Under the pieces are notes generated by a model. The model was not told the origin of the DNA and ran no database searches. It saw nothing but the letters and a program-made list of their open reading frames with translations. 64,000 nt of DNA from Escherichia coli (lineage in GTDB: Bacteria > Pseudomonadota > Gammaproteobacteria > Enterobacterales > Enterobacteriaceae), in the NCBI RefSeq assembly GCF_003334305.1, contig NZ_QOWS01000014.1. One strand, given 5' to 3'. The position numbers were made by a program, and so were the translations under genes. Below are positions 55,643 to 56,125 of this stretch, piece after piece (within the stretch, counting starts at the first letter, position 1; every line of letters begins with the position of its first letter).

Positions 55643-56125
55643 TTACGGCTCAAACGGGCGTCTCTGGAACTGGTCATGACCACATTTCGGGCATAGCGTC
55701 AGCACTTCCGGTGTGTAGATCGGGAGATGGAAGTGACATTTCTCGCAGACCAGATTTCCCAGCCCGACCACTTCTCCGCTGTGATAAACCCCATGATGAT
55801 TGAGGTCCTGGAAAACTTCGCGCCATTCAAGCTGCGTTTTATCGGTGATATCTGCCAGCTCCTGCCATAAGCTTTCTTTAATCACCCGCATAAAGACGCT
55901 GTCAGATTCTTCTTTCAGGCTCTCTTCATAGCTCATGGCGAACTCTTCCAGGTCACGTCTTACAGCTCGCGTCAGCTCATCGACCTCGGTTCGCGTTAAC
56001 TCCCCTGTTTTTATTACGCGCTCGCGCGCCTGTTCCACCAGTGCGTCGATATCACGTTCGCCATTGCGCAGGCGTTCGCTCAGTGACGCGACCAGTTCAC
56101 GGTAATATTGAGCAACCTTGTTCAT
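55643..56125 (-). CDS. ybeL: DUF1451 zinc-ribbon protein YbeL, 160 aa
   Basis: ORF-track protein MNKVAQYYRELVASLSERLRNGERDIDALVEQARERV... ending in a Cys4 ribbon (CEKCHFH...CPKCGHD). Confidence 0.9.
   Translation of the reverse strand: MNKVAQYYRELVASLSERLRNGERDIDALVEQARERVIKTGELTRTEVDELTRAVRRDLEEFAMSYEESLKEESDSVFMRVIKESLWQELADITDKTQLEWREVFQDLNHHGVYHSGEVVGLGNLVCEKCHFHLPIYTPEVLTLCPKCGHDQFQRRPFEP

Follow-up and report, generated by a model that had tools for sequence, protein, structure and literature searches.

What does YbeL, a small Escherichia coli protein with four cysteines near its C-terminus, do in the cell, and how far do its relatives, its predicted structure and the surroundings of its gene help to answer this question? 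In those parts of the literature mentioning YbeL that were available, no function is assigned to the protein and it appears in no title. We studied its gene in a window of 64,000 nucleotides of E. coli DNA (contig NZ_QOWS01000014.1), and all positions given below count from the first letter of this stretch.

The ybeL gene and its family

The reading frame in question is the following:

55643..56125, minus strand: ybeL coding sequence, ATG to TAA, 160 codons plus stop, from the open reading frame listing and its translation

It is 100% identical to the gene annotated as ybeL, "zinc ribbon-containing protein", in E. coli genomes, and a 1.2-kb stretch around it was matched in 5425 of 5426 complete E. 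coli genomes, the best match being 100%. The assignment to the uncharacterized family DUF1451, proposed originally from the letters alone, is borne out by Pfam, where PF07295 matches residues 14-157 with an E-value of 8.5e-50. The NCBIfam model PRK11032 (NF008261) scores 299.7 bits against a cut-off of 183 and covers residues 1-160 of 160. Many short open reading frames overlap ybeL on both strands and were discounted as by-products of the mechanical listing. The same listing starts leuS at the ATG at 56219 (907 aa), while the annotated and homology-supported start is at 56360 (860 aa, MQEQYRPEE), and the extension (56219-56359) is therefore an artefact. On one flank, ybeL is followed by the convergent ybeQ and then by ybeR-djlB-ybeT-ybeU-djlC-hscC-rihA-gltL; on the other flank lies the divergent group leuS-lptE-holA-nadD-cobC-rsfS-rlmH-mrdA. 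These annotated neighbours agree with the placement of ybeL between the hscC/djl cluster and leuS on the opposite strand in the original prediction.

YbeL contains exactly four cysteines, C127, C130, C145 and C148, which form two CxxC pairs:

55736..55747, minus strand: first knuckle, C127-E-K-C130, codons checked, both cysteines in 85/85 sequences
55682..55693, minus strand: second knuckle, C145-P-K-C148, followed by G149 (CPxCG signature), codons checked, both cysteines in 85/85 sequences

Their C-terminal position within the 160 residues had been recognized correctly. The proposed spacing CxxC-N17-CxxC, on the other hand, has to be corrected, as 14 residues separate the pairs (N14), also in the peptide quoted in its support, CEKCHFHLPIYTPEVLTLCPKCGH, which comprises residues 127-150. 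When 1.84 billion representative proteins were searched exhaustively with HMMER, 382 clusters were obtained at E<=0.001, and the query was aligned with 84 full-length representatives chosen for carrying the motif (alignment A1, 85 sequences). Mean column identity across these 85 DUF1451 members is 24%, and the four cysteines are the only invariant columns. The N14 spacing is common to 84/84 representatives, which were selected for it. D58, D95, Y114, G117, G123, F153 and R155 are each conserved in at least 90% of the sequences, D58 and D95 in at least 95%. DUF1451 is matched by 85/85 sequences, and 45/85 also match Zn_ribbon_8 at E<=0.1. The alignment strongly supports the Cys4 motif as the invariant by which the DUF1451 family is defined, and its conservation goes far beyond chance. 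Those homologues that carry names among the AFDB matches all stem from Gammaproteobacteria, namely Enterobacterales, Aeromonas, Vibrio/Photobacterium, Shewanella, Pseudoalteromonas, Ferrimonas, Thiohalophilus and others.

A predicted two-part structure

AlphaFold2 divides YbeL into two parts:

55796..56125, minus strand: N-terminal acidic helical region, residues 1-110, five predicted helices (AlphaFold2, DSSP)
55646..55795, minus strand: C-terminal zinc-ribbon or rubredoxin-like domain, residues 111-160

According to DSSP the helices span residues 2-20, 26-40, 45-72, 77-93 and 96-110 and are followed by a small beta domain. D, E, K and R make up 39% of residues 1-110 (17 K/R versus 26 D/E, net charge -9, pI 4.7), and this composition together with the five helices upholds the earlier description of the N-terminal half as helical and charge-rich. 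The full-length model has a mean pLDDT of 88 and a pTM of only 0.58, and a Foldseek search of AFDB50 with this model returned only the family itself, with TM-scores of 0.3-0.55 even to near-identical proteins. For both reasons the packing of the helices is unreliable and not to be interpreted. Model confidence dips at residues 61-80 (window about 55886-55945) and is lowest in the acidic linker EESLKEESDS within this stretch; deletions of 3 and 7 residues occur here in Salmonella variants, and duplications in metagenomic ones. Low confidence and length variation together suggest that residues 61-80 are a flexible hinge between helical segments.

The C-terminal domain was modelled with a pLDDT of 88.7. 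Its best structural matches are zinc-ribbon or rubredoxin-like modules, which superimpose over 33-38 residues at 1.6-2.0 Å. Among them are the MCM N-terminal zinc subdomain (36-38 residues at 1.8-2.0 Å) and the Trf/DUF35 zinc ribbon (29% identity over 38 residues), and further matches comprise the rubrerythrin C-terminal domain, RPB12, rubredoxin and desulforedoxin. These fold matches predict that the two CxxC knuckles come to lie side by side, so that the structure prediction, named originally as a check on the juxtaposition of the four cysteines, came out in its favour. In the model, the knuckles would lie at beta-hairpin turns around one site, as in zinc ribbons and rubredoxin-like folds. 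PDB searches by sequence or profile did not retrieve a solved relative.

How does this architecture compare with that of known proteins? Members of DUF1451/PRK11032 share the same length (about 160 aa), the helical N-terminal region and the four invariant cysteines; YbeL is simply the E. coli member of this family and differs from it in nothing. Rubredoxin-like ribbons, i.e., Zn_ribbon_8/FmdB (CxxC_CxxC_SSSS), MCM, DUF35/ChsH2 and RPB12, have the two beta-hairpin CxxC knuckles in common with YbeL, including a second knuckle of the CPxCG type and a short spacer, in line with the superposition given above. These ribbons are generic modules that occur on unrelated domains, and their sequence matches to YbeL are sub-threshold (E 0.05-0.5). 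They are thus uninformative with regard to the function of YbeL.

Two better characterized protein types combine helices with a Cys4 site. Rubrerythrin consists of a helical bundle and a C-terminal rubredoxin-like Fe(Cys)4 domain, whereas the metal of YbeL is presumed to be zinc. Some homologues bear the name rubrerythrin at JGI. This assignment was rejected: NF045767 gives 17.7 bits against a cut-off of 200, and the helical di-iron ExxH motifs are missing, the only E..H of YbeL being E128-K-C-H131 inside the zinc knuckle. DksA/TraR proteins consist of a coiled coil and a C4 zinc finger and bind in the secondary channel of RNA polymerase; N17 is the DksA spacing. YbeL resembles them in being small, acidic and largely helical with one Cys4 site near the C-terminus. 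Nevertheless, DksA/TraR was rejected as well. When the YbeL family profile was compared with E. coli DksA (sequence verified against 1tjl), hhalign gave a probability of 4% and aligned only the cysteine columns, with a 3-residue gap. The spacing in YbeL is 14 instead of 17, the D..D.A (DxxDxA tip) motif is absent, and Pfam at E<=10 contained no zf-dskA_traR match. In addition, the finger of YbeL is predicted as a beta-ribbon whereas that of DksA is helical, and the model of YbeL lacks a long coiled coil with a DxxDxA tip.

Probable metal binding and possible partners of the ribbon

Indirect evidence for metal binding comes from a metalloproteomics preprint, where YbeL is described with "a clear cluster of 4 cysteines" and chelator treatment of lysates alters its behaviour both in limited proteolysis and in thermal proteome profiling (10.1101/2025.11.10.687516). 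This response, the invariance of the cysteines and the well-modelled domain support the original prediction of a Cys4 zinc ribbon at the C-terminus, with a helical domain in front of it. The Cys4 site very probably binds one structural metal ion, most likely Zn2+, and thereby folds a rubredoxin-like ribbon. In the proposed arrangement, the five-helix N-terminal region (about residues 2-110) would be followed by a compact ribbon (about residues 112-156), whose two beta-hairpin knuckles, C127-x-x-C130 and C145-P-x-C148-G, would hold the metal in a structural rather than a catalytic role.

The ribbon is followed by a tail of conserved length:

55646..55669, minus strand: tail F153-x-R155-x-x-F-x-P160, ending in proline; F153 in 93% and R155 in 98% of the family

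Exactly 12 residues follow the last cysteine (C148) in 41/84 representatives, and 31 of these 41 end in proline; a terminal proline occurs in 33/84 overall. At an assumed background of 4%, the binomial probability of this enrichment is about 1e-24, a value that ignores shared ancestry and is indicative only. Within the Enterobacteriaceae the tail GHDQFQRRPFEP is almost invariant. A terminal proline kept at a fixed distance is unusual.

Charge is a second property of the whole family. E. coli YbeL has a pI of 5.1 and a net charge of -10, the family medians are 5.3 and -10, and 88% of the members have a pI below 6. This acidity argues against simple electrostatic nucleic-acid binding, so that a docking partner is more likely to be a protein than naked nucleic acid. 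We give about even chances to the idea that the ribbon docks such a protein partner via its conserved face (Y114, G117, G123, F153 and R155) and the fixed-length, proline-ending tail, which together would form the docking surface, while the acidic helical region would serve as a second surface or in oligomerization. Taken as a whole, a soluble, acidic two-part protein that combines a metal ribbon with partner docking is the explanation we prefer, with a confidence slightly better than even.

In principle, the ribbon could instead make contact with rRNA, tRNA or a ribosomal protein in the manner of many zinc ribbons of the ribosome, and the original prediction had considered YbeL as a ribosome- or RNA-associated factor. 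The gene indeed lies within a deeply conserved block related to translation, with leuS adjoining and rsfS, rlmH, ybeY, ybeZ/phoH and miaB nearby. However, this block represents two essential operons that remain adjacent anyway, so the association with this neighbourhood is weak and lends little support. Similarly, the family profile weakly matches the ribosomal zinc ribbons S27e, uS14 and eL43 (E 0.4-1), and RPB12 and the Trf zinc ribbon are among the structures that the domain model resembles, but such ribbon matches are generic to all Cys4 ribbons. Some homologues are labelled "predicted nucleic acid-binding Zn-ribbon protein" at JGI, whereas the family is acidic and even its ribbon domain alone has a median net charge of -2. 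The available parts of the literature mentioning YbeL contain no report of ribosome or RNA association. We consider this role unlikely.

A further possibility is that the Cys4 site serves in sensing or redox chemistry and not as a scaffold, either as a zinc-thiolate switch of the kind found in Hsp33, RsrA and DksA, which release zinc upon oxidation, or as an electron carrier with a rubredoxin-type Fe(Cys)4 site that goes back to a rubrerythrin-like ancestor. The CxxCG...CPxCG pattern of YbeL also fits rubredoxin-type Fe(Cys)4 sites. Compared with the structural zinc site favoured above, such a function appears distinctly improbable.

Gene order, expression and remaining readings

Conserved divergent gene pairs often consist of a regulator and its target, and YbeL might accordingly regulate the divergent leuS-lptE-holA operon or share a control region with it. 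Gene order was compared between E. coli and the contigs of ten diverse representatives, i.e., in eleven representative clusters with pairwise identities of no more than 50%. For nine of the eleven (E. coli, P0145, P0149, P0157, P0165, P0192, P0203, P0237 and P0244), leuS lies immediately upstream of and divergent from ybeL with spacers of 101-244 bp, which speaks in favour of a functional pair, whereas the adjacency is missing in the other two lineages. Six of the clusters carry lnt(-corC-ybeY-phoH-miaB) convergently downstream of ybeL. In E. coli, an insertion of roughly 15 kb (ybeQ to gltL) separates ybeL from lnt; it came in on the lnt side and left the ybeL-leuS junction intact, which counts in favour of this reading. 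The order in other Gammaproteobacteria is lnt, ybeL, leuS. The inserted block (window about 46300-55573, L001 1-9274) comprises gltL, rihA, hscC, djlC, ybeU, ybeT, djlB, ybeR and ybeQ and holds two paralogous pairs of DUF1266 and J-domain genes, plus Sel1/TPR repeat genes. The divergent junction itself spans 56126-56359 of the window, with counterparts in loci L002, L004, L006, L007, L012, L016, L017 and L018.

Against a regulatory role of YbeL stands that the protein is acidic and has no DNA-binding domain recognizable in Pfam. Moreover, the sole recurrent motif in the ybeL-leuS spacers from nine lineages, GCATAGSATA (reverse complement TATSCTATGC), is TATGCTATGCGG-like and resembles a leuS -10 element with a GC-rich discriminator rather than an operator. 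As the spacers share only this apparent -10 element, there is no sign of a common operator. A recent preprint locates a bile-salt-resistance suppressor in the "ybeL 5' UTR" and states that deletion of ybeL does not have the same effect (bioRxiv 10.1101/2025.02.09.637341). The location of the suppressor would fit a shared control region. Loss of YbeL is nevertheless an unlikely cause of the suppression, since the deletion does not reproduce it, and the mutation may act on LptE expression instead because the same DNA (56126-56359) is the leuS-lptE upstream region. Altogether, we regard control of leuS by YbeL as very improbable.

The following elements accompany ybeL:

56133..56138, minus strand: Shine-Dalgarno-like GGGAGA, 7 nt upstream of the ATG, read from the sequence
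56214..56243, minus strand: sigma-70-like promoter match TTGAAA-18-TACATT in the 234-bp ybeL/leuS spacer, from a consensus scan
55586..55609: GC-rich hairpin GGGCCG...CGGCCC in the 69-bp convergent ybeQ/ybeL spacer, from a terminator scan (plus strand)
55640..55645, minus strand: tandem in-frame stops TAA TAG after ybeL, read from the codons

Note that the consensus scan returned one sigma-70-like match with 1.0 expected by chance, which is no evidence of function. On the ybeL strand the stem of the hairpin is followed by UUGUUUUUAU (MFE -17.6 kcal/mol, z = -2.2), and T-rich runs flank the hairpin on both sides; by its sequence features, it is likely a bidirectional intrinsic terminator. A published sigma-54 site, IA07 (GCGGTATTGCTCTTGCA; PMC4591121), maps to 56361-56377 in the first leuS codons, where it is antisense to leuS and directed at ybeL 225 bp away.

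YbeL is made as a protein and has been quantified by proteomics; in rRNA methyltransferase mutants its abundance in the proteome decreases along with that of RpoS, RpoS-dependent proteins, OsmY, Bfr and similar proteins (PMC7056703). Upon a shift to acid, ybeL rises alongside RpoS-type genes (PMC2270276), and in the absence of CpxR it is down 2.6-fold (PMC2731931). It is also a candidate direct target of CsrA in the translational class (PMC5389547) and a target of RprA in published interaction data. The RprA-ybeL pairing calculated with RNAduplex (-40.7 versus a shuffle mean of -40.5) was no better than that of shuffled sequences, and an 8-nt complementarity between the two RNAs (GGGAGAUG/CAUCUCCC) has a chance expectation of roughly 0.2. 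From the expression data, we infer that YbeL is part of the physiology of stationary phase and envelope stress, with post-transcriptional control by RprA and, as a candidate, CsrA.

In E. coli, termination is slowed by a proline at the C-terminus, which also triggers ssrA tagging, and it is the terminal proline that makes ybeL a laboratory model for both processes. Hayes, Bose and Sauer (J Biol Chem 2002) reportedly found that overproduced wild-type YbeL, which ends in Glu-Pro, is itself ssrA-tagged. Could the terminal proline have been selected for this effect and not for structure alone, so that the output of YbeL is gated at termination by release-factor and tmRNA capacity and the protein acts on leuS and the translation block, beside which its gene has remained throughout the Gammaproteobacteria? 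If true, YbeL would be a protein whose production depends on the translation status of the cell. The tandem stops TAA TAG could offset poor termination after proline. They are absent at distant homologue loci, where single stops of all three kinds are present, and for this reason no claim of selection on the stop context is made. The likelihood of such gating is slim indeed.

Least probable of all is that the N-terminal helices form an exchangeable bundle on membrane or lipid surfaces, resembling apolipoproteins or phasins, with the zinc ribbon as a cap: the matches to Pfam Apolipoprotein (E 0.018; one member 1.1e-5; 1/85 members at E<=0.001), to apolipophorin-III and apoA-IV in the PDB (E 0.03-0.06) and to a phasin model (E 0.62) are, apart from that one member, all sub-threshold, typical of E/R/L-rich helices and probably compositional, and while the packing of the five helices is unstable across models and YbeL has been employed in surface display as an "anchor" or fusion partner, published descriptions call the protein highly hydrophilic, and the convergent arrangement with lnt in many lineages differs from co-transcription, even though at one locus a CDP-alcohol phosphatidyltransferase gene follows 3 bp after ybeL.

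With regard to the family as a whole, the Cys4 zinc ribbon is real and beyond chance, yet it is already known and ordinary. It is standard annotation, since Pfam and NCBI both describe DUF1451/PRK11032 as zinc-ribbon containing, and its observation here contributes nothing beyond these resources and the 2025 metalloproteomics preprint. The divergent leuS junction kept across Gammaproteobacteria is a modest lead on function and no discovery. A similarly modest lead is the fixed tail, which ties the laboratory use of YbeL as a reporter of termination stalling to a natural, possibly selected, property of ybeL. Finally, the acidity of the family may help in the search for its function, as it makes a protein partner more likely than a nucleic acid.
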